DNA of 64,000 bases. It comes from Candidatus Bathyarchaeota archaeon (GTDB lineage Archaea; Thermoproteota; Bathyarchaeia; TCS64). The notes beneath the pieces are model-generated. The model was given only the letters and a program-made list of their open reading frames with translations, ran no database searches and was not told where the DNA came from. This document shows positions 33,910 to 43,904 of this stretch, piece after piece (the first letter of the stretch is position 1; the number at the start of each line of letters is the position of its first letter). The DNA lies in contig CAVYLP010000003.1 in assembly GCA_963769425.1 (NCBI GenBank), positions 96,001 through 160,000 on the forward strand. The letters are read 5' to 3'. A program made the translations under genes and the position numbers.

Positions 33910-34473
33910 CTTCTCCATATTCAAGTCCTCCGAATCTAAAAAGGGAAAAAGCCTCTTGAACGGTACCCAGCACCCCGTCTTAAGGTTGTAGAACCACGCC
34001 TTGTTAATGTCCTCAAGCAACTTCTCGGTGATAGTGGCCAAGATTGGGTAATGGGCGTTTTCTACCTCCACACTCGAAGCGATCACGGGCACTATCCCCT
34101 CAGGATAATCCCACGCGCGGTCCTTAAGGACCGTACATGTCATATCGAATGTCTTCACGACTTTAAGGCTCTGGTTTATCACGGGGACAAAGGGGTAAGA
34201 TCTGCAAATAGTGGGGCGGTAGGCGTGCATCGTGCATCCACCGAGCCTTCTATGGGGACAGGAGTTGAGACGCATCTGATAGGTTATGATTTCAAATTCA
34301 GGATCCTTTGGGGAAACGCCTACTCCATAAGCGGGTCTTACTTGGTCTTTTCTGAATAGTTCGACCTCCCCGGGAAGGAGAGGTAGTCATTCGCGGACAC
34401 CTTGTCTATCAATGAGTAGTCTGTTGCAGCAGATCCCGCAGTTGATGCAGTGGTAGACTATTGGCTCGGGCAA
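33892..34473 (-). pseudogene. YkgJ-type cysteine cluster protein with in-frame TGA
   Basis: YHCINCGICC...GVRE*LPLLPGE...CPH...C.M...RPTICRSYPF all in one frame. Confidence 0.7.
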
Positions 34474-34502
34474 GGCTGAAAAGCTGGTGTGGCTTCCCCG
34501 AT

Positions 34503-34805
34503 TTAAAGCCGCTCAAGTTTGAAGACTACAGGGCGTAGCCCGTCGGTGCAGCAGGAGATCATGAAGCCTTTTTTCTTTATCCAAGGAAAATCTCCACCCA
34601 TGGCGAGATGAACCACGTCTCTCTGAATATCCGACCATGCCCAGGAGCAGAAACCTTCAGGCATACTCATGCCCTTAGAGATGTACTCCTTCCCATCCTG
34701 CATTACATTACAGGTTGGCTGCATCTCAACATCGGCATACTCCTTAAAGATTTCATGAGTAGGAAGCTTCTTAGCCACGGTTATTTTAACGTCTGAGAAC
34801 TTCAT
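34503..34805 (-). CDS. TIGR04076 family protein
   Basis: PEGFCSWAW, CCTDGLRPVVFKLER. Confidence 0.85.
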   Translation of the reverse strand: MKFSDVKITVAKKLPTHEIFKEYADVEMQPTCNVMQDGKEYISKGMSMPEGFCSWAWSDIQRDVVHLAMGGDFPWIKKKGFMISCCTDGLRPVVFKLERL

Positions 34806-34909
34806 CTATATACCCAAATAAAATAATGGTTTTTTTAGTTAATAATGGTACCCTTATTGGATCACTTTTTAAAAATGTTAATTTCTGTGAGGGAATACTT
34901 GCGAATATC

Positions 34910-35185
34910 TTAGTGACTGGAACATGAAATGCATGGGTCGTATGCTCTTACCAACATTTCCATGGTGAGCTCGATTTCTCTATCCGCCTTATTCGCGTTG
35001 GGGGAAGAAATACTTCTTGGGAGGGAGAAGAGTTACCTCATAATCAGGCCGAAGCTCATCGGGAGAATCGAGTACATCGAAGACATATTTGTCGCCTCTG
35101 GACTTGACACCTATCGTCGCCAGATATAGTCTTTTATCAGATTGGCTATGAATTCTGTAAAATCTTCCTTGGATATTATCTTCAT
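34910..35185 (-). pseudogene. Collapsed group 3b [NiFe]-hydrogenase operon remnant (beta 5' end joined to alpha 3' end)
   Basis: MKIISKEDF...LRPDYEVTLLPPKKYFFPQRE immediately followed by EMLVRAYDPCISCSSH*. Confidence 0.8.
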
Positions 35186-35546
35186 TAGATCGACACTAAA
35201 AACGATAAGGTATCCTTTACAAAGAAAATACTTGCGTACAGTAAATGGTGTATATACTTGTTTGGAGCCGCCGGTAAGGACACTATTTTTGTTTAATTTG
35301 TTTATTTTAAGTATAACCGGTGTCTTTATCGTTTTTATTAACAAATATAAATTGATGAATGAAACTGCTCATCTCTTTTTTCCAACCAGCCAAAGATAAT
35401 GCCTGCTACAAACTTCAGAACCCATAACCAGTAAATCATTGATTAAAAAAATGGTGTCTAAAAGCGTTAAAATCAGGTTAATCTATATAACAAAGACAAA
35501 CTGGCTATCCATAAAACAGATAACCAATGCAAAGGAAAAAAAGAGC

Positions 35547-35966
35547 GTGAAAATACCAAAACCCAGGCGACGATACGTGAGTATCGGGAACGTGACCCGT
35601 AGATCCCGCTATGAACCTAGACCTCGACGTATCCGAATCGACCCATCCACCAAGAGGGAGTTGTTCATCTACGAGACCGATAAAACAAAAGCCGCAATAC
35701 AGAAAATAATAGACGACCCCGAGACCCCAGACAAGATCCGAATACAGGCAGCGAACTGCTACGCCAATTTAATAAGGGTCAGCTACCAGATGGTGAGGGA
35801 CATAGACATCGAGGACGTCGAGCGCCAAATAGAAGAGCTCGAAGACGAATTTAACAAGCAAAGGGACAACGATCTCGACTTCTCGCCCCAAGCCGACTCC
35901 ACACACACAGAAGATGAGGAACAAAAACAACCCTCGAAAACTACTACCACAGTAGGTGCGACATGA
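35547..35966 (+). CDS. Hypothetical protein (basic N-terminus, helical core, coiled coil)
   Basis: ORF 35439-35966, likely start GTG 35547; stop overlaps next gene (ATGA). Confidence 0.65.
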   Translation: MKIPKPRRRYVSIGNVTRRSRYEPRPRRIRIDPSTKRELFIYETDKTKAAIQKIIDDPETPDKIRIQAANCYANLIRVSYQMVRDIDIEDVERQIEELEDEFNKQRDNDLDFSPQADSTHTEDEEQKQPSKTTTTVGAT

Positions 35967-36355
35967 GAACCTACATATATACACCAAACGAGAGAAGAGC
36001 TCTAACCGCCTGGCTTAAAGGACAAGCAGAGCGGAAAGACTCAGCCTCCCTAGATCAGGTCCTCACCAGAACAAAGAGCAACCGCGCAGCCCTTACTCGG
36101 GACCTTCAGCTACTCACGCTCACGACCAAGAAATTACACGCTGAGGGACGTAAACGGCACAAATCCGACCTAGAGGTTACTATCGCCGTCGCCCCCCTCA
36201 CTCTTGAGGCAGCGAACAGAGAAACCTACACACTGCTCCCCACGCTTCGTCGGTCAGAGGAAACCGCAAACGACCCAGCAGCACCAACAGATGTGCGCCT
36301 AGACGCCTTTCAAGAAGTTGCACGCATAGCCAAGGAGATCAGAGGAACAATCTGA
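35963..36355 (+). CDS. Hypothetical protein (YIYTxxER family; paralog at 29.3-29.7 kb)
   Basis: Translational coupling to the upstream gene; in-window paralog. Confidence 0.7.
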   Translation: MRTYIYTPNERRALTAWLKGQAERKDSASLDQVLTRTKSNRAALTRDLQLLTLTTKKLHAEGRKRHKSDLEVTIAVAPLTLEAANRETYTLLPTLRRSEETANDPAAPTDVRLDAFQEVARIAKEIRGTI

Positions 36356-36615
36356 CAAAAAAACAGGATACCATAAAAGGAATCCACAAAAACAGGAGAA
36401 AAAAAGGGAGTTACAATCCCCAAAGTAGCTTCCGCGTTCACAGGGAACACCCAACAACACTGGAATAGCAAGCCGTCAAGGACTGATCAAAGCTCCATTG
36501 TTTAAAGGAGGTGGTCATACGTTTAAAACGATCAGAAAAAATCAAATCAGGAGAAGCATTTACAACGACTTAAACCCCAAACAGACCCCTAAAAAATCTC
36601 CGTTAGGTTTTTTGT

Positions 36616-36692
36616 TGGTGCCGCTGGTGTGATTTGAACACACAACCCCTCGGTCTTCAGCCGAGCGCTCTCCCAGGCTGAGCTACAGCGGC
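36616..36692 (-). tRNA. tRNA-Phe(GAA)
   Basis: GCCGCTG/CAGCGGC, CTCGG-CTGAAGA-CCGAG, TTCAAAT, CCA. Confidence 0.95.
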
Positions 36693-36754: not shown

Positions 36755-36982
36755 CTAGACGGCGTCACCAGTCATCGAAGCGCCGTTCTTTTTGGCGACC
36801 TCGACCACAATGCCGACCTGCCTGGGGTCCATCCCCTTTCCAGCCAGCACTTCAACGAGACCGTCAAGGCTCTTTATCTCCGGGTCCTCTATTGCTCTCA
36901 TTATTCGCCTCGCGTCGTAGTACCCCAAGGCGCTCCTCAGGTCCCTGTAGAGGGCCTTCCTAAACAGCGTGCTCAGCTTCAT
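36755..36982 (-). CDS. Small hypothetical protein, last gene of the hydrogenase operon
   Basis: MKLSTLFRKALY..., 75 aa, GGAGG upstream, overlaps end of the HycG-like gene. Confidence 0.6.
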   Translation of the reverse strand: MKLSTLFRKALYRDLRSALGYYDARRIMRAIEDPEIKSLDGLVEVLAGKGMDPRQVGIVVEVAKKNGASMTGDAV

Positions 36983-37457
36983 CTGATCCCTCCCTCCTCG
37001 AAACCTTCTGCTCGACCTTGCCGAGCCCCAGCAGTAGGCCGTGTATGAGCGCCTCGGGTTTCGGCGGACAGCCGGGCACATAGACGTCCACAGGCACCGC
37101 CTTGTCGACCCCACCGACGACGGTGAAGCTGTCATGGAATATCCCACCACCGCAGGCGCAGCTACCGATAGCGACGATCAGCTTCGGATCGGGAGCCGCT
37201 TCGACCGCATTCCGCAGCGTGGCGGCCGACTGCCTCGTAACCGGTCCTGTCACAAGCAGGATGTCCGCATGCTTCGGGCTTGACACCCTCTTCACTCCGA
37301 ACCTCTCCGCGTCGAAGTAGGGGGTGAGCGTGTCGATTATCTCGATGTCGCACCCGTTGCACCCGCCGGTGTTGACGTGGAAGACCCACGGGCTCCTGCC
37401 GAGCCTCCTGATCCTCTCCAGTTTCCCCTCGGCGTCTAGGCTGCGTTCACTGCTCAT
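36960..37457 (-). CDS. Group 4 hydrogenase small subunit (HycG/NuoB-like)
   Basis: GCNGCDIE, SPKHAD, GSCA, PGCPP. Confidence 0.9.
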   Translation of the reverse strand: MSSERSLDAEGKLERIRRLGRSPWVFHVNTGGCNGCDIEIIDTLTPYFDAERFGVKRVSSPKHADILLVTGPVTRQSAATLRNAVEAAPDPKLIVAIGSCACGGGIFHDSFTVVGGVDKAVPVDVYVPGCPPKPEALIHGLLLGLGKVEQKVSRREGSDEAEHAV

Positions 37458-37986
37458 CCTTGACCCTCCTGTAGGCGTCCGCGGACGCGTCGCCCCAGCG
37501 CGTCTTCTTGCACTCGGGGCAGAGATGAACCATTCCCTTGAGGCTCTTGTCGAGTTCGTATGCAAGTTCCCCATACTCCGCGAGGGTGTATTCGAGCGCA
37601 CGCTCGGTCGTGAAGTAAGAGCCGCACCCCTCGCACTTCACCCTCCGCAGCCGCAGCTCGACTTCTAGCGCCTCCTTGGTGGTGGAGGCGAGCTCGTAGT
37701 CCTCAGAGAATCTAATGGCGTCTACTGGGCAAACCTCCTCGCAGAGGCCGCACATTATGCACCTACCGTAGAATAACTTCAGCTTCCACGACTCCTCTTG
37801 CTCCTCGATGGTCAGGGCGTTGGGCGGGCACACGCGTGCGCATGCGCCGCAGCCGATGCAGGTGTCGAACCCGATCTCGGGCCTCCCCCTCAGCCCCTCG
37901 GGCACCGGCCTCCTCTCGGAGGGGTACCTGTAGGTGACCCTGCCCTTCCCGATGCCGAGTCGGAGAAGCTTGATGACACCACTCAA
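37447..37986 (-). CDS. Group 4 hydrogenase Fe-S subunit (HycF/NuoI-like)
   Basis: CIGCGACARVCP, CIMCGLCEEVCP, extra CxxC...CxxC. Confidence 0.9.
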   Translation of the reverse strand: MSGVIKLLRLGIGKGRVTYRYPSERRPVPEGLRGRPEIGFDTCIGCGACARVCPPNALTIEEQEESWKLKLFYGRCIMCGLCEEVCPVDAIRFSEDYELASTTKEALEVELRLRRVKCEGCGSYFTTERALEYTLAEYGELAYELDKSLKGMVHLCPECKKTRWGDASADAYRRVKDEQ

Positions 37987-39650
37987 ATAAGTCGCCTCCC
38001 AAGGTCCTCACCTGAGACGACTCTCTCCACGCCACTCCCCACGTCGACGATAGCAACTCTCTCCGCGCAGGAGATGCACGGGTCGATGCTGCCTATGATG
38101 ATGGAGGCGTCCGCAAGCGTCTCCCCCACGAGCATCAGCTTCGCCGCGGGTAGGTTCGCGTAGGTTGGCGCCCTAACCCTCCACCGGTAGACGGTGTTAT
38201 CCCTCCCAGTTATGAGATAGTGCGCGTCCGTTCCCCTAGGGCCCTCAACTAGTCCCACGGATGTCACGTCGGACGGTATGTAGTCGATGGGCTGATGCAC
38301 AGGGCCACCGGGGATCCCCTCGAGGACCTGCCTCATGATCTTGATGGACTCTAGTGTGTCGTTGGCTCTGATGAGTGTCCGCGCGAGGACGTCCCCGCCC
38401 GACTCCACGGGGGTCTTGAACTCGAGGCTGCCGTAGGCCTCGTAGGGGAAGTCGCGTCTGACGTCCATGTCGACGCCCGAGCCCCTGGCGAGGGGACCCG
38501 TCACGGAGTGCCTCTTCGCCTCCTCGTTGGATAGACGACCTACACCCTTTAGCCTCCGCTTCAGGGTGTCGATGTCGAGGACCGCACCGAGTAACTCCTC
38601 GTATTCGAGTTGAACTTCGCCGATGACCTTGAGGGCCTCCTTCCTCCTGTCCTCCCTTATGTCCCTCCTCACGCCGCCGGGCACGATCATCCCGTACTGC
38701 TTCCGGTTCCCCGTGAGGAGCTCGGCGAGGCCCATCACCCTGTCCCTCACCCTCCAGAACTGCATGAGGCCGGTGTCGAAGCCGACCATGTGGGAGGCGA
38801 CGCCCAGCCAGAGCAGGTGGCTATGTATCCTCTCCATCTCCAGCATAGCGACGCGTATCCACCTCGCCCTCTCCGGCGGTTCGAAGCCAGCCGCCCCCTC
38901 AAGGGCCTGAGAGTAGGCCTCGGCGTGGACGGAACCACAGATGCCGCAGACCCTCTCCGCGATGAAGGGTATAGTCTCGTATGTGAGCCTCGTCTCCGCT
39001 ATCTTCTCCAGTCCCCTGTAGTTGAAGCCCGCCCTGAGGTCGACGCCCATTATCCTCTCCCCGTCGGCGTGGAACCTGAAGTAGATGGGCTCGTGTATGG
39101 CGAAGTGGTAGGGGCCGTAGGGGATCACGTTGAACATCGGGGCGTCCTCAGGCGCCTCAAAGGGGAAGCTGCCCGTCTCCTTCGTCGGTACCTGCGTATC
39201 GACCTTGAAGCTCTTCCTCATCGGGAAGACGTCATCGGGCCAGTCGTCTGCCATGAGCAGTTTCCTCGGGTTCGGGTGACCCACCGGCGTGAGGCCGAGC
39301 GACTCTTTGGCCTCCCTCTCATACCAGTCCGCGCTTGGGACCAAGGGAGTGACTGAGGCGAAGGACTCGTCCCCTCTCCTCGTCGTGGCCCTGAAGACGA
39401 TGGTCTGCCCAAGCCTGTACCATCCCAGCACATAGTCTACGAGGTAGTCATCCTCGGTGTCAACTCTGTCGGTGGCCACCATAGTGAGGAGGTTACCACC
39501 GATGGTGTTGTGGGCGTACTCAACCACGGCTGGGAGATGCTCCTTCCGAAGCTCTATCAGCCAAGTGTTACCGCGTAGGATGCTGGTCGATTTGACCTCG
39601 TTTGGGAACTTTTGCCGAATCTCCTCGACTATGTTTCTCTCCATGTTCAC
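37983..39650 (-). CDS. Group 4 [NiFe]-hydrogenase large subunit (HycE-like, NuoC+D fused)
   Basis: WYERE, GPYH, RGLEK, ERVCGIC, DPCISC plus C-terminal extension. Confidence 0.92.
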   Translation of the reverse strand: MNMERNIVEEIRQKFPNEVKSTSILRGNTWLIELRKEHLPAVVEYAHNTIGGNLLTMVATDRVDTEDDYLVDYVLGWYRLGQTIVFRATTRRGDESFASVTPLVPSADWYEREAKESLGLTPVGHPNPRKLLMADDWPDDVFPMRKSFKVDTQVPTKETGSFPFEAPEDAPMFNVIPYGPYHFAIHEPIYFRFHADGERIMGVDLRAGFNYRGLEKIAETRLTYETIPFIAERVCGICGSVHAEAYSQALEGAAGFEPPERARWIRVAMLEMERIHSHLLWLGVASHMVGFDTGLMQFWRVRDRVMGLAELLTGNRKQYGMIVPGGVRRDIREDRRKEALKVIGEVQLEYEELLGAVLDIDTLKRRLKGVGRLSNEEAKRHSVTGPLARGSGVDMDVRRDFPYEAYGSLEFKTPVESGGDVLARTLIRANDTLESIKIMRQVLEGIPGGPVHQPIDYIPSDVTSVGLVEGPRGTDAHYLITGRDNTVYRWRVRAPTYANLPAAKLMLVGETLADASIIIGSIDPCISCAERVAIVDVGSGVERVVSGEDLGRRLI

Positions 39651-40564
39651 AACCCCAAGGCCGGAGCTAGGTACGCAAGGATCAACGAGAACACCGATAG
39701 GATCAAGACGAAGCCGTAGAACCTCGACGCCTCAAGGAGTCTGAACCTGGCGTTCAGGGACTCGGCGAGTGACAGCACTAGGGTGCAGATAATGAGACTC
39801 GCAAGGTATACGATCACGACAGCGACCGAGTAACCGACGCCGTTCAGTCCCGGTGATACAAGCGCCGAGATGTAGAACGCTGGGATGGAGCACAGGGCAA
39901 GATTCCTGAGGTACTGCCCCAGCTTCAGGGTCCCGAGGGAGGGGCCACTGAACTCGATCAGTGGACCACCCGTGATCTCAGATTCTGCTTCCGCCACGTC
40001 AAACGGGGTCCTCCCACTCTCGGCGAGGAGGCAGAGGAAGTAAGCCAACCCGCTAAAGAGCAGGGGAATCAGAGCCACATACCCGCTCGCTGAGTAGTCT
40101 AGGGTCGTCGAGCCCCTGAGAATCACCAGCGAGACGAGTGACGCGATCATGGAGGGTTCGACAACTGTTGCGAGTATGACCTCCCTGGAGCCGCCGACCA
40201 CGCCGTAGGGGTTCCCGCTCGCGCTTCCCGCTAATGCGAAGGTGAAGGCCGAGAGGACGACCAGCTCGATGAAGACGATTCCGCCATCCAATATGGGCGC
40301 CTGAGCAGTCACTGTCGACATGGTCGCGAACATTGCGAGTGAAAGTACGAGTGTAAGCACGGGCACCATGACGAACAGGATGCCGCCCGATTCGGGAAGG
40401 ATGACTTCCTTCGAGAATAGCTTTAGTACGTCGTGCCACGACTGCGTGACTGGCGGGCCGACCCGGTTCTGGAGCCTCGCCGTTATCTTCCTCCGCAGCC
40501 CGTCGAGGAGGGGCGCGATCAGTATGGCCAACGCAAGGTTTACGACTAGAGGCAGGATGTTCAT
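39647..40564 (-). CDS. Hydrogenase membrane subunit (HycD/NuoH-like)
   Basis: RKITARLQNRVGPP, D..KL, PFDVAEAESE, EFSG. Confidence 0.9.
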   Translation of the reverse strand: MNILPLVVNLALAILIAPLLDGLRRKITARLQNRVGPPVTQSWHDVLKLFSKEVILPESGGILFVMVPVLTLVLSLAMFATMSTVTAQAPILDGGIVFIELVVLSAFTFALAGSASGNPYGVVGGSREVILATVVEPSMIASLVSLVILRGSTTLDYSASGYVALIPLLFSGLAYFLCLLAESGRTPFDVAEAESEITGGPLIEFSGPSLGTLKLGQYLRNLALCSIPAFYISALVSPGLNGVGYSVAVVIVYLASLIICTLVLSLAESLNARFRLLEASRFYGFVLILSVFSLILAYLAPALGL

Positions 40565-41994
40565 ATCATCCCTCCGAGCGCCGTTATGGCTGCTAGAACT
40601 AGGAGAATCAGAACCGGGTTGAGCCTCTCGAGGACCGCAGAGGCGCGGTCATCGGGCACTCTGATTGAGTATATCGGCTTGAATATCTCGGCCCAGGACG
40701 TGAACACCTCACCACGTGACCCGCCCAAATCGGCGATCCCCGCATAGCCGGTTGTCCAAGACTTCCTCTTAACGACCTTAGACCGCGACGCGAAGGCGAT
40801 CGAAACCGCGACTGCGGCGAGGGCGATCAGAAGGAGGATATTCACTGCGTCAAAATGGAAAATCGGTTCTGCTGTGATGATCGCATATGCCCCGAGCGGG
40901 AGGACCGGAGCGAGAGCCGAGAATAAACCTACTAGCGAGAATGCGAGGGCAGGGTATTTCTCACCACTCGACATCGCCGTCCCCGGCTTCGGGAGGCCCT
41001 CGTAGACCAACGTGTACCCTCGGAAGAACACGGCGAGGGAAGCAGCCACCGTGAAGAGCGTCGCGCAGCCGAGAAGGACGAGACCTAAGTCCCCCGAGAG
41101 TCCGCTCCTCATGAATCCCTCGGCCCCGAGGCTCATGACGCTGACGATCGTGAGGTAGGCGACTAGAATCGAGGCGGCCTCGACATTGAGTGTGGCGGAT
41201 AAACCGCCGAAGTCGAAGAGCCCCGACTTCCCGGCCCTCCTGAGCAGGTCGTCGTGCAGACTGTTTATGACGATGAGGGCCAACGCGGACGGTATCAGGG
41301 CGTAGATGAACAGCGCAGCGTCTACCTGCGACGCGACGATTAATAGCCCGAAAGTCACCTGATGGATCGCCGACGACAACGTGGCGAAGTTCTTCGACAC
41401 CATCCCCTGGAAGACGCCGCTGAGCATCATCAAGATACCCAGAACCAGGACGAGTGGCAGCAGTGCGGCGTAGGACGCCCTATTCGCGTTGAGATAAAGT
41501 AACGCGCCGATCGACACGAGTATCCCGATGGACCTGTAGTTCGAGTACATCTCCGACAGCCACTTGTGGAACGGGGGGACGCCGAGGAGCAGTAGGAGCA
41601 CCGGTATTGGGGCGAACTCGAAGCCCATGAATTGAAGGAGGAGCGTCAGAGGTAATACCACCAGCGAGTATAACCCGATCCTGCCTTGAGCCTCCTTCGC
41701 CGAAAGCGCTAGGAAGATGAGGATCGTGATCGAGAAGAGCGGCAGGTACCCAGGAAGCCCGACCGTGGAAACGAGGGATATGAGGGAAAGCCACTGTGGG
41801 TTGACCTCCGGGTCAACAAGCAGCGCGAGGGACGCCACGAGTATCACGACCTGATCGAATCCGACGGCAACGTATCCGATAGCACCCATCCCCAGCAGAG
41901 CCACAAGAACCAAAGTGAGGAGGACTCTTGCCACTCTCCGATTGTAGAGGTAGAGGAGGGCAGGAGCCAGTAGGAGAATTGCCTGGTACATCAA
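40561..41994 (-). CDS. Antiporter-like membrane subunit (HycC/NuoL-like, divergent)
   Basis: PPFHKWL, FGGL, W.TG tail; polytopic. Confidence 0.75.
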   Translation of the reverse strand: MMYQAILLLAPALLYLYNRRVARVLLTLVLVALLGMGAIGYVAVGFDQVVILVASLALLVDPEVNPQWLSLISLVSTVGLPGYLPLFSITILIFLALSAKEAQGRIGLYSLVVLPLTLLLQFMGFEFAPIPVLLLLLGVPPFHKWLSEMYSNYRSIGILVSIGALLYLNANRASYAALLPLVLVLGILMMLSGVFQGMVSKNFATLSSAIHQVTFGLLIVASQVDAALFIYALIPSALALIVINSLHDDLLRRAGKSGLFDFGGLSATLNVEAASILVAYLTIVSVMSLGAEGFMRSGLSGDLGLVLLGCATLFTVAASLAVFFRGYTLVYEGLPKPGTAMSSGEKYPALAFSLVGLFSALAPVLPLGAYAIITAEPIFHFDAVNILLLIALAAVAVSIAFASRSKVVKRKSWTTGYAGIADLGGSRGEVFTSWAEIFKPIYSIRVPDDRASAVLERLNPVLILLVLAAITALGGMI

Positions 41995-41999
41995 ACCGG

Positions 42000-42491
42000 T
42001 TAGCCTCCTCCAGGCTGTTTGACTAGCAGCTTCCTTTCTTTCAGCAGCTTCACCGATCTACTCTTGGACTTCTTCACTACATCGTCATATTCGCCATACT
42101 CTATTGCACCGGTTGGGCAGAGTTCTACGCAGGCTGGCAGCAGGCCGTCACTCGCCCTCTCGGCGCAGAGGTCACACTTAGTCACGAAGCCCCTTACTGG
42201 ATCAGGGTCGGGGACCCCCATCGGGCAGGCGAGGACGCAGAGTTTGCACCCGACGCACCTGTTCTGCCTGAGGCTCACGACGCCCTCGTCGTTCCTGTAG
42301 ACCGCGCCAGTGGGGCAGACATCGACACAGACCGGGTTGGAGCAGTGGAGGCACGTTATCGGGACGAGTACGCCGTCGGATGTGGGGCGGACCTTAGCCC
42401 TCGGCTTCCCGTTTACGAACTCGCAGACCCTCTCGCAGAGCTCGCAGCCTATACACCTCTCCATGTCAATGACCTTAACCTTCGCCAACAT
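42000..42491 (-). CDS. 4x[4Fe-4S] ferredoxin-like subunit (HycB/HydN-like)
   Basis: Four Cys clusters: CIGCELC, CLHC..P.C..VCP, CVGCKLC..ACP, KCDLC...PAC..CP. Confidence 0.9.
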   Translation of the reverse strand: MLAKVKVIDMERCIGCELCERVCEFVNGKPRAKVRPTSDGVLVPITCLHCSNPVCVDVCPTGAVYRNDEGVVSLRQNRCVGCKLCVLACPMGVPDPDPVRGFVTKCDLCAERASDGLLPACVELCPTGAIEYGEYDDVVKKSKSRSVKLLKERKLLVKQPGGG

Positions 42492-42494
42492 CAG

Positions 42495-43556
42495 TCACCC
42501 TCGCAGGTACCTGTCGACCCAGTGGGCAGTCTTGAGACCGGTCTGGTAGGCCCTCCCCACCTTTGTGATGCCCGTCGTGATGTCACCAGTCGCGAAGACC
42601 TTAACCTTCGACGAGAGGTACCTGTCGTTAACCTCGATGCCGCCCCACCGGAGGGTCTTGATGTCCTTATACTCCTTGTTGAAAGGCGGCGTGGGCACCT
42701 GCCCTATACCGACGATGATGGTGTCGACCTTCTCGATGATCTGCTCGGTTCCGGGGATCTGCTCGAGCTTGAGGATTACACCCGCCTTTATCTCGGCGTT
42801 GACCTTGATGGTCTCAACTGACTGGACCTTTCCTTCGCCGAGTACTTTCTTGATGACAGTCCTCTCTGAGTGTTCGACCCCTTTCTTCTTGAGTCGCCCT
42901 ATCTCGTAGCTGCCCGACGGGGAGTCGAACTGGTGCTCGATGGATATGAGGCGCACGTTGTGTCCCTCGGCGGCCGCCTCGGTCGCGGCGTCGACGGCTA
43001 CTAGCCCCGAGCCGATGACCGCGACGTTCCGCCCAAGCTTAATCCTCTCCTTCTTCGGGATGAGCCCTAGTTCGTTAGCCTTGCACCTGAAGAGGTATTC
43101 GAGGGCGGAGTGGATGCCCTTGTAGGTGGCGTTCTCGGCAGGTAGCCCCCTCGAGTTCCACGTCCCCGTGGCTATGATTGTGGCGTCGTTCTCGTCAATG
43201 ACTCTCTGCAGATCAACCTTCTCCCTCGCGAGGTCATCGCCGAGTAGCTGGTCACCATTGGCGGAGACCTTACACGACGTTTTGAAGTTGACACCATAGA
43301 CCTCCTCCAGCTCCTTGCATCCGCCAAGCACCCTCTCCCTAGGGATACGGGCCTCGGGTATCCCGAAGACCATAACGCCCCCGGGGATGGGGAGCCTCTC
43401 GTAGACGGTTACCTCGTGGCCCTTGCTCGCGAGGTATCCTGCCGCGGCGAGTCCCGAGGGGCCTGAGCCTATGACGGCGATCCTCTTGCCGGTCCCCTGA
43501 GCTGGTCCCTTACCACCGCTCATGAATGAGAAGCGCATGTACCCCGGAGAAGCCAC
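42495..43556 (-). CDS. FAD/NAD(P)H oxidoreductase (GltD/SudA C-terminal part, NsoC-like)
   Basis: GSGPSGL, FGIP, ATGTW, GSGLVAVDAA, FATGD; no N-terminal Fe-S domain. Confidence 0.85.
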   Translation of the reverse strand: MASPGYMRFSFMSGGKGPAQGTGKRIAVIGSGPSGLAAAGYLASKGHEVTVYERLPIPGGVMVFGIPEARIPRERVLGGCKELEEVYGVNFKTSCKVSANGDQLLGDDLAREKVDLQRVIDENDATIIATGTWNSRGLPAENATYKGIHSALEYLFRCKANELGLIPKKERIKLGRNVAVIGSGLVAVDAATEAAAEGHNVRLISIEHQFDSPSGSYEIGRLKKKGVEHSERTVIKKVLGEGKVQSVETIKVNAEIKAGVILKLEQIPGTEQIIEKVDTIIVGIGQVPTPPFNKEYKDIKTLRWGGIEVNDRYLSSKVKVFATGDITTGITKVGRAYQTGLKTAHWVDRYLRG

Positions 43557-43828: not shown

Positions 43829-43904
43829 GGGCCGGTGGTCTAGTGGTTATGACGTCGCCTTGACATGGCGGAGGTCGCAGGTTCGAACCCTGCTCGGCCC
43901 ACCA
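43829..43904 (+). tRNA. tRNA-Val(GAC)
   Basis: GGGCCGG/TCGGCCC, TCGCC-TTGACAT-GGCGG, TTCGAAC, CCA. Confidence 0.95.

Follow-up and report, generated by a model that had tools for sequence, protein, structure and literature searches.

A 64,000-nucleotide stretch of DNA from a Candidatus Bathyarchaeota archaeon (positions 96,001 to 160,000 of contig CAVYLP010000003.1, hereafter called the window) carries an operon for a [NiFe] hydrogenase that is membrane-bound and belongs to the formate hydrogenlyase (FHL) type, and the first gene of this operon encodes a short FAD flavoprotein rather than a formate dehydrogenase. We consider, with a probability of roughly 0.65, that this flavoprotein, which is of the SudA/NfnB/Fdh3B kind, serves the hydrogenase as a peripheral electron module in place of formate dehydrogenase. 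On the best reading, the complex would then be a membrane-bound NAD(P)H:H+ (or H2:NAD(P)+) oxidoreductase.

The operon resides in a 2.55-Mb assembly of six contigs that is 91% complete, and it comprises eight tightly packed minus-strand genes (36755-43556) bounded by two tRNA genes. Pfam and NCBIfam scans give the gene order as the flavoprotein, homologues of hycB, C, D, E, F and G, and a 75-amino-acid (aa) open reading frame (ORF), with successive spacings of +3, +5, -4, -4, -4, -11 and -23 nt. Family scans of the operon and its flanking genes found no genes for formate dehydrogenase, carbon monoxide dehydrogenase (CODH) or Mrp in the operon. Such genes can be said to be missing from the operon because the tRNAs, together with unrelated genes for a P-type ATPase, a GTPase, a glyoxalase and a hydrolase, mark its limits. 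The initial annotation of this DNA had described the same gene order and the same absence of a Mo/W formate dehydrogenase, CODH or Mrp module, and this description holds once the starts of HycG and the small ORF are corrected (Table 1).

The flavoprotein scores 335 bits against the NCBIfam model PRK12770, "putative glutamate synthase subunit beta", just below the cut-off of 343, and its best solved match is the large subunit of Pyrococcus furiosus NfnI (residues 152-470 of 474, 138.6 bits). Its only domains are an FAD-binding GxGxxG and an NAD(P)H-binding GxGxxA Rossmann domain, the latter with the motif GSGLVA. The N-terminal 2x[4Fe-4S] domain PF14691, which is present in longer homologues, has no match in the flavoprotein, and no Cys residue is invariant across the 18 homologues in our alignment (A1). 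Lacking both an Fe-S domain and a conserved Cys, the protein must pass electrons from its FAD to a cluster on a partner.

A candidate partner is encoded by the next gene. In the HycB-like polyferredoxin, all 16 Cys residues are invariant in 12 homologues, and its solved matches include E. coli HycB (7z0s_B) and AorA (8c0z_C). AorC of the tungsten aldehyde oxidoreductase AorABC was considered as a homologue of the flavoprotein and rejected, as no 8c0z chain matches the latter at E <= 0.001. The HycB-like protein is also matched end to end (84 bits) by chain E of PDB entry 9mqx, a 152-aa "Fe-S-cluster-containing hydrogenase subunit"; no chain of that entry matches HycE (E <= 1e-20) or the flavoprotein (E <= 0.001).

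When the complex of the flavoprotein and HycB was predicted from custom alignments of both proteins, a check that the initial annotation had proposed with HycF included, an interface was obtained with a score of 0.87, compared with 0.30 for the best of three controls. This score passes the mark of the procedure, which is reached by 58 of 80 solved complexes and by 2 of 110 mismatched pairs. At least 93% of the contacts recur between runs, and the predicted local distance difference test (pLDDT) of the partner is 91. On the flavoprotein side, the predicted interface involves an invariant N-terminal MRFxFM peptide and a C-terminal helix. On the HycB side, it involves residues 14-25 and 117-132, around the terminal cluster of Cys13/16/19/125. 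The model thus supports binding, with the flavoprotein predicted to dock on the terminal HycB cluster.

The pairing is also conserved. For both HycE and the flavoprotein, the closest named homologues are annotated as "Candidatus Bathyarchaeota archaeon". A sample of 300 other genomes of the class yielded HycE orthologues (63-86% identity) from 6 of the 17 that belong to the same genus and from a single member of another family; the next-best HycE match is 42% identical. The operon is a property of a small, patchily distributed clade. The initial annotation had called for a survey of synteny, and the flavoprotein-HycB pair is found in the same order and orientation at all seven orthologous loci that extend upstream of hycC (L012, L014, L015, L017 [= L032], L018, L033 and L117), with no locus contradicting the linkage. 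The identities of L117 equal those of L012, and both may derive from the same population; five further orthologous loci (L013, L016, L116, L118 and L123) end inside the operon and are uninformative. In group 4 clusters of the class that are more distant (L019-L031, at most 42% identity), the genes are ordered differently, and the fetched flanks contain no flavoprotein gene.

The initial annotation had taken the GSGLVA (GxGxxA) motif to suggest NADP(H), and this part of its proposal is not borne out. At the position where NADPH-dependent homologues carry YRR[TS], which closes the second beta-strand of their NADPH domain and is seen in four solved NADPH enzymes (NfnI-L, Thermotoga maritima NfnB, a second Nfn and an Stn subunit), the flavoprotein carries S205-I206-E207-H208, and S-[IV]-E is found there in every orthologue. 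Among the 83 fetched homologue loci that cover this position, 72 have YRR, whereas S-[IV]-E is found in seven, which are exactly the Bathyarchaeia hydrogenase-linked loci. Three loci from unrelated bacteria (L074, L079 and L094) have [IL]-E, and one has neither motif; the switch from YRR to an [IL]-E type seems to have arisen more than once. Alignment A1 divides in the same manner, with S-[IV]-E in 9/9 Bathyarchaeia-type rows and YRR in 9/9 others. E207 lies 20 residues beyond the alanine of GxGxxA. In NAD(H)-specific Rossmann folds, a ribose-binding acid stands at the corresponding place, and E207 would take the position of this acid. With Glu in the place that the phosphate-binding Arg-Arg occupies in relatives, NADH is a more likely substrate than NADPH, and this argument is stronger than the one from GxGxxA.

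The hydrogenase itself appears to be intact. The initial annotation had noted that HycE retains RVCGIC and DPCISC and has a C-terminal extension, and these features are all present: the L1 motif RVCGICGSVH lies at residue 233 and the L2 motif DPCISCAER at residue 523 of 555, leaving 27 residues beyond the last Cys and a tail of 24 residues beyond the Arg of L2. Both fit the patterns C[GS][ILV]C[AGNS]xxH and [DE][PL]Cx[AGST]Cx[DE][RL] quoted in PMC7886697, and all four Cys ligands of the Ni-Fe site are preserved. HycE combines PF00374, PF00346 and PF00329, and the partners expected of a group 4 enzyme are encoded with it, namely NuoB (PF01058), HycF/NuoI, NuoH (PF00146) and an antiporter-like subunit recognized by fold only. 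A quick maximum-likelihood tree of 58 large subunits (LG+G4) joins the Bathyarchaeia HycE clade to Thermococcales sequences and E. coli HycE (SH-aLRT 99). This group is nested in a broader FHL-type clade (SH-aLRT 100); the position of E. coli, which has a long branch, is unsure. The genome encodes two HycI-type proteases and HypD, consistent with the C-terminal tail of HycE. A phylogeny and a search for hycI/hyp genes had both been suggested at the outset, and their results agree with the assignment. Sequence comparisons therefore support the classification of the operon as a group 4 membrane [NiFe] hydrogenase of the FHL type (HycBCDEFG), the type designated 4a in HydDB.

These same features bear on the nature of the terminal acceptor. 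Protons or sulfur have been named as possible acceptors of a related complex in Desulfurococcaceae, in the passages of PMC3035292 that discuss it, and NAD(P)H-driven reduction of sulfur or polysulfide by an MBS- or MBX-like enzyme might accordingly be envisaged for the Bathyarchaeia operon. This is very improbable, given that the four Ni-Fe ligands and the L1 and L2 patterns are intact and that HycE has a C-terminal processing tail, with HycI-type proteases and HypD also encoded in the genome. Furthermore, the best solved match of HycE is E. coli HycE (7z0s_E), which aligns over the whole length with 431 bits, compared with 235 bits for Pyrococcus MbhL and only 169 bits for MbsL (6u8y_L).

The membrane arm is more difficult to assign. 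The 477-aa product of the third gene has no Pfam or NCBIfam match, including none to Proton_antipo_M (PF00361), and a profile search of the PDB returned nothing at E values up to 10. Alignment by hhalign to a Thermogladius antiporter subunit and to E. coli HycC gave probabilities of about 1%. An AlphaFold2 model (pLDDT 64.8, pTM 0.71) nonetheless gave 130 PDB matches at E <= 0.001 when searched with Foldseek. Every one of the best 50 is an antiporter-like subunit (NuoL/M/N, NdhB/F, MrpD or HycC) from complex I, NDH-1, Mrp or FHL, and the match to E. coli HycC (7z0t_C) has a TMq of 0.67. The model, itself of moderate quality, has the two inverted five-helix repeats of NuoL, NuoN and HycC, and weak co-linear alignments reveal motif remnants in common with E. 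coli HycC, namely PFHKWL (of PLHxWLP) and a C-terminal WxxGY. Judged by its predicted fold and these remnants, the protein is probably a highly divergent antiporter-like subunit. The label "HycC-like" in the initial annotation can be kept on that basis, but not on the basis of a family match.

If these components function together, a hydride would be exchanged between NAD(P)H and the FAD of the flavoprotein, and single electrons would pass from FAD to the terminal [4Fe-4S] cluster of HycB, through the three other HycB clusters, and onward via HycF and HycG to the Ni-Fe site of HycE, where H+ and H2 would be interconverted. HycD and the one divergent antiporter-like subunit would form a minimal membrane arm. 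The direction of flow must be considered with the energetics in mind. With textbook potentials of -320 mV for NAD+/NADH and -414 mV for H+/H2, the formation of H2 from NADH requires about +18 kJ/mol under standard conditions. Thus, H2 evolution would need either a very low H2 pressure or energy drawn from an ion gradient. Alternatively, the complex may operate as an ion-translocating H2:NAD+ oxidoreductase, in which the reverse reaction could drive ion export.

Several points weigh against this reading and are best considered together. No bench work on a flavoprotein-linked group 4 hydrogenase was found in open-access papers or preprints. The predicted interface may echo the contact between the ferredoxin domain and the FAD domain inside solved NfnB-type proteins, in which case the prediction would show likeness rather than binding. 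Reading the exchange of Glu for Arg as a change of nucleotide carries a general Rossmann-fold rule over to this family, and the model of the antiporter-like subunit, which might move ions, has a pLDDT of only 64.8. In addition, the flavoprotein-HycB pair can occur by itself, and a formate dehydrogenase is encoded elsewhere in the genome.

The first of these last two points emerges from a scan of species genomes with the flavoprotein alignment, which returned 80 loci. A HycB-like gene directly follows the flavoprotein gene in 31 of them, and a HycE homologue is present in eight: one from Bathyarchaeia, six from Thermoproteota (Thermogladius included) and one from Thermococcus paralvinellae. The pair precedes a group 4 hydrogenase in the six Thermoproteota loci (L036, L037, L038, L043, L053 and L069). 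In the T. paralvinellae contig (L034, from a metagenome-assembled genome [MAG]), it is located downstream of genes for a PF00361 antiporter subunit and homologues of HycC/D/E/F/G, an arrangement indicating that a Thermococcales Mrp-linked hydrogenase cluster also ends in the flavoprotein-HycB module. No FdhA homologue was found in the fetched 20 kb of that contig, with 3.9 kb upstream lying outside the fetched part. The pair is also found without a hydrogenase in 17 Thermodesulfobacteriota loci (among L039-L059, L067, L070 and L073), and at the one such locus scanned further (L047), the next gene encodes a 538-aa FAD-dependent protein (PF21688/DAO). These pair-bearing loci belong to Desulfovibrionaceae, Desulfomicrobiaceae and their relatives. 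The pair is thus a portable module that can serve other partners, and the flavoprotein and HycB-like protein of the window could constitute a soluble NAD(P)H:acceptor oxidoreductase of their own, sharing no more than a transcript with HycCDEFG, which would be fed by ferredoxin in the manner of Mbh or Ech. We regard this as quite unlikely. The operon has a single HycB-like gene, located where hycB stands in E. coli, and the portion of the E. coli FHL structure report that treats HycB describes it as the hydrogenase's own relay, bound to HycF and HycE (PMC9474812). Moreover, the genes concerned are spaced by only 3 and 5 nt, and the linkage that holds at every informative orthologous locus is encountered again in Desulfurococcaceae.

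The second point requires a comparison of genomes. An FdhA is encoded on another contig (C6, L001:913-3120, minus strand) and scores 910.7 bits against TIGR01591, well above the curated cut-off of 666. Furthermore, the fetched E. coli hyc region likewise has no formate dehydrogenase gene, so the absence of one from the operon proves little, and the initial annotation had placed too much weight on it. These facts would suit a classical formate hydrogenlyase, in which FdhA docks on HycB in trans as does E. coli FdhF, leaving the flavoprotein as an accessory or second port, for example in a three-way formate/NAD(P)H/H2 complex. The same scheme could account for an extra Cys quartet in HycF (118, 121, 156 and 159), which in E. 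coli HycF (Cys117/120/155/158) is placed near the FdhF interface by the part of PMC9474812 that describes it. It also has a parallel in Thermococcus onnurineus Fdh3, in which FdhA is joined to the same kind of flavoprotein, according to the sections of PMC8965080 on this enzyme.

Even so, this scheme is unlikely. The fdhA gene directly adjoins an HdrB-like gene (L001:2928-3809, minus strand; TIGR03288, 270 bits, below cut-off), which suggests that the formate dehydrogenase is wired to another complex, of the heterodisulfide reductase type. FdhA does not track the operon across genomes: it is found above cut-off in only four of eight carriers (the genome under study, G198, G135 and G108), compared with two of the three non-carrier genomes searched. 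It was not found above cut-off in G219, the closest relative, which is 95% complete and has the full operon (best score 340 bits), or in G216, G279 and G040, which are only 84%, 88% and 87% complete. A search of the genome for fdhA, as proposed in the initial annotation, thus gives a divided answer, in that the gene is present but unlinked and was not found above cut-off in half of the carriers of the operon. No FdhA homologue was found in any fetched flank of the flavoprotein-linked hydrogenase loci. By comparison, a genome of another Bathyarchaeia family (G046, contig C13, L020/L021) has an FdhA homologue beside a HycB-like gene, between two group 4 clusters whose HycE proteins are 36-40% identical to that of the window. 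Linked formate hydrogenlyases therefore exist in the class, and that lineage keeps its FdhA beside HycB. A separate observation concerns a Dehalococcoidales MAG (L076, 10001-13824), where a GltD-like gene of the YRR type (31% identical) precedes an FdhA homologue that is 50% identical to the one in the genome under study; this pair looks like an NADP-linked formate dehydrogenase.

Overall, what the initial annotation had proposed, an NAD(P)H:H+ oxidoreductase with a flavoprotein as its input, retains its core through the synteny, the complex prediction and the precedent of Fdh3, while its preference for NADP(H) does not stand. A more specific proposal can be offered tentatively, and should be regarded as doubtful: that the operon encodes a minimal NADH:proton oxidoreductase of seven core subunits plus the 75-aa ORF, in which an FHL scaffold recruited a GltD-type NADH module independently of NuoEFG and possibly also of the Desulfurococcaceae enzymes. 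If this proposal is correct, the minimal complex would either dispose of NADH as H2, moving ions as it does so, in anoxic habitats where H2 is low, or conserve energy by working as an H2:NAD+ ion pump. It would supply a missing redox-balancing route in Bathyarchaeia that are assumed to be mesophilic, and would represent a living analogue of the step in complex I evolution at which a hydrogenase acquires an NADH port.

Classification by the large subunit alone would probably yield the label "formate hydrogenlyase" or "formate-respiring" for this enzyme, E. coli HycE being its nearest solved relative. In the operon, the partner is a pyridine-nucleotide flavoprotein, and formate metabolism could therefore be wrongly assigned in metabolic reconstructions of Bathyarchaeia. 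The compact, Mrp-free version of the complex might be more tractable for expression and cryo-electron microscopy than the versions from hyperthermophiles, and the switch from YRR to SIE makes the simple prediction that NADH rather than NADPH is used. Should NADH and H2 prove to be coupled to ion movement, the complex would bear on how fermenters without bifurcating hydrogenases dispose of NADH, as well as on the origin of the NADH port of complex I.

Table 1. Genes of the flavoprotein-linked hydrogenase operon and its tRNA boundaries, in window coordinates
Feature	Position	Strand	Basis or remark
tRNA-Val, divergent, upstream operon boundary	43829..43904	+	Rfam
Flavoprotein, short GltD/SudA/Fdh3B-like, 353 aa	42495..43556	-	Pyr_redox_2, E 3e-30
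HycB-like 4x[4Fe-4S] polyferredoxin, 163 aa	42000..42491	-	Fer4_11, four Cys motifs
Putative divergent antiporter-like (HycC/NuoL-type) membrane subunit, 477 aa	40561..41994	-	Predicted fold and motif remnants
HycD / NuoH-like membrane subunit, 305 aa	39647..40564	-	PF00146, E 4e-49
HycE-type [NiFe] large subunit fused to NuoC-like domain, 555 aa	37983..39650	-	30-kDa + 49-kDa + NiFeSe_Hases
HycF-type 2x[4Fe-4S] subunit, 179 aa	37447..37986	-	NF009053 "formate hydrogenlyase complex iron-sulfur subunit", 158.6 bits, below cut-off of 204
HycG / NuoB-like small subunit, 165 aa from Met49 of listed frame	36960..37457	-	PF01058, E 2.5e-32
Clade-specific 75-aa ORF (from Met57)	36755..36982	-	Overlaps hycG end by 23 nt
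tRNA-Phe, downstream operon boundary	36616..36692	-	Rfam

Certain features of the locus require comment. The listed frame of HycG extends from 36960 to 37601, and its start is most likely at 37457, because homologues align from residue 49 of that frame; a GGAGG ribosome-binding-like site is found at this start. The longer frame of the small ORF merely mirrors its overlap with hycG. This ORF is kept downstream of hycG at other loci (L012-L017, L116-L118 and L123) and has no Pfam or Atlas match; E. coli HycH and the Thermogladius small ORF were considered as counterparts and rejected for want of any likeness. No hycA, hycH or hycI gene lies in the operon of the window. An Rfam scan of the region returned nothing beyond the two tRNAs, and a scan with a sigma-70 model, which is ill-suited to archaea, gave promoter and terminator counts at the level of shuffled sequence. 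A look-up in sequencing runs listed no RNA run containing this DNA, and the DNA runs listed contain at most 0.28 of the sampled words. In four genomes of the genus (G219, G216, G198 and G135, at L012-L015), the small ORF has the tRNA-Phe gene directly after it, and tRNA-Val likewise lies upstream of the operon in G219 and G135. The operon occupies one conserved genomic site, even though only 6/17 other genomes of the genus carry it. Adjoining tRNA-Phe, a 2-kb stretch (34001-36400) has 44% G+C, compared with 49-64% for the rest of the window, and contains ORFs (35439-35966 and 35963-36355) without a Pfam match; it may be an integrated element. Elsewhere in the genome, contigs C1 (about 128504) and C5 (about 60007) each encode a further homologue of NuoD or [NiFe] large subunits. 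On C5, a HycI-type protease gene lies 2 kb upstream of this homologue, which groups with further group 4 clusters of Bathyarchaeia, of gene order G-E-D-F.

The closest precedents for this architecture come from Desulfurococcaceae. The relevant section of Spring et al. (2010; PMC3035292) describes "dehydrogenase-linked MBX complexes" in Thermosphaera aggregans (Tagg_0050-0059), Desulfurococcus kamchatkensis and Staphylothermus marinus, in which fdhA is reported to be missing and a sudA homologue to stand in its place, and concludes that the complex is linked to an NADPH dehydrogenase. Similarly, the part of Anderson et al. (2009; PMC2678158) that deals with this region identifies Smar_1055, beside Smar_1057-1071, as a SudA homologue that is 120 aa shorter than SudA. 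In these complexes as in the window, a short SudA-like flavoprotein replaces fdhA and is followed by a HycB-like gene and by HycD/E/F/G homologues. The layout was therefore predicted in 2009-2010, and the NADPH-dehydrogenase reading was published for Desulfurococcaceae in 2010; the architecture cannot be considered new, but its presence in Bathyarchaeia can. No prior description in Bathyarchaeia was found in the main texts of open-access PMC papers and bioRxiv preprints. Termite-gut Bathyarchaeia have an 11-subunit group 4g hydrogenase, "Hfo" (PMC7886697), but this was set aside as a possible earlier description because it is Fpo/Nuo-like and without the flavoprotein; the text of that paper does not contain the terms "glutamate synthase", "GltD", "HycB" or "NADPH". 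What is new here is the Bathyarchaeia host, the predicted specificity for NADH and the stripped-down, Mrp-free membrane arm.

There are several differences from the Desulfurococcaceae complexes. In Thermogladius, HycB and HycD are separated by two PF00361 subunits, and MnhE and another PF00361 gene lie upstream, whereas the window has a single membrane subunit without a Pfam match and no Mrp genes. The Desulfurococcaceae flavoproteins retain YRR where that of the window has SIE, and identities amount to 37-40% for the flavoprotein and 41-44% for HycE. The HycE clades of the two groups are separate in the tree, and forcing together this group, which was named after the tree had been seen, costs 25 log-likelihood units (lnL), with a p-AU of 0.042. 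This gives only a hint that the two enzymes may have arisen by separate recruitment or by module exchange.

Among enzymes known in more detail, E. coli formate hydrogenlyase-1 (7z0s/7z0t) shares the hycBCDEFG order, the four HycB clusters, the HycF quartet, the HycE tail and the use of a single antiporter-like subunit plus HycD. It differs in having an unlinked Mo/Se formate dehydrogenase in place of a flavoprotein gene within the operon, and its HycC has 608 aa, whereas the 477-aa counterpart in the window is unrecognizable by sequence profile. The Thermococcales Fdh-Mfh-Mnh and CODH-Mch-Mnh systems (group 4b) have a HycE-type large subunit that is 44-47% identical to that of the window, and they possess Mrp/Mnh; the window operon has no Mrp/Mnh, formate dehydrogenase or CODH.

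The electron module itself can be compared with Fdh3 (Fdh3A/B/G1/G2) of T. onnurineus, which is the only purified enzyme with this kind of module found in the open-access literature consulted. The sections of PMC8965080 on this enzyme describe a W-formate dehydrogenase that is accompanied by 18-kDa Fe-S subunits and by a 39-kDa, NfnI-like subunit that binds NAD(P). The purified enzyme reduces NADP+ at 77 U/mg and strongly prefers it to NAD+, and Arg204-Arg205 are assigned to the 2'-phosphate of NADPH by reference to the NfnI structure. From that description and the NfnI template, we infer that the Fdh3 flavoprotein (TON_0542) is homologous to the one in the window. In both systems, a flavoprotein without an Fe-S domain would act with Fe-S proteins as a port for NAD(P)(H), whereas the catalytic partner in Fdh3 is a soluble W-formate dehydrogenase, the preferred nucleotide is NADP+ and the Arg pair is retained.

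NfnAB/SudAB, GltD and E. coli AegA/YgfT are homologous to the window flavoprotein in their FAD and NAD(P)H domains. Against the AegA profile, the HycB-like protein aligns at positions 6-161 and the flavoprotein at positions 325-649, although AegA is a fusion and the window has two separate genes in the opposite order. The window flavoprotein has no NfnA-like partner, and thus there is no evident bifurcation. Complex I, finally, shares homologues of NuoB/C/D/H/I/L, and in both cases the Fe-S relay has at its tip a flavoprotein that reacts with NAD(H). The window flavoprotein, however, is of the FAD/GltD type and unrelated to NuoF, and one antiporter-like subunit takes the place of three. Because the Ni-Fe ligands are kept, the acceptor would be protons rather than quinone as in complex I.

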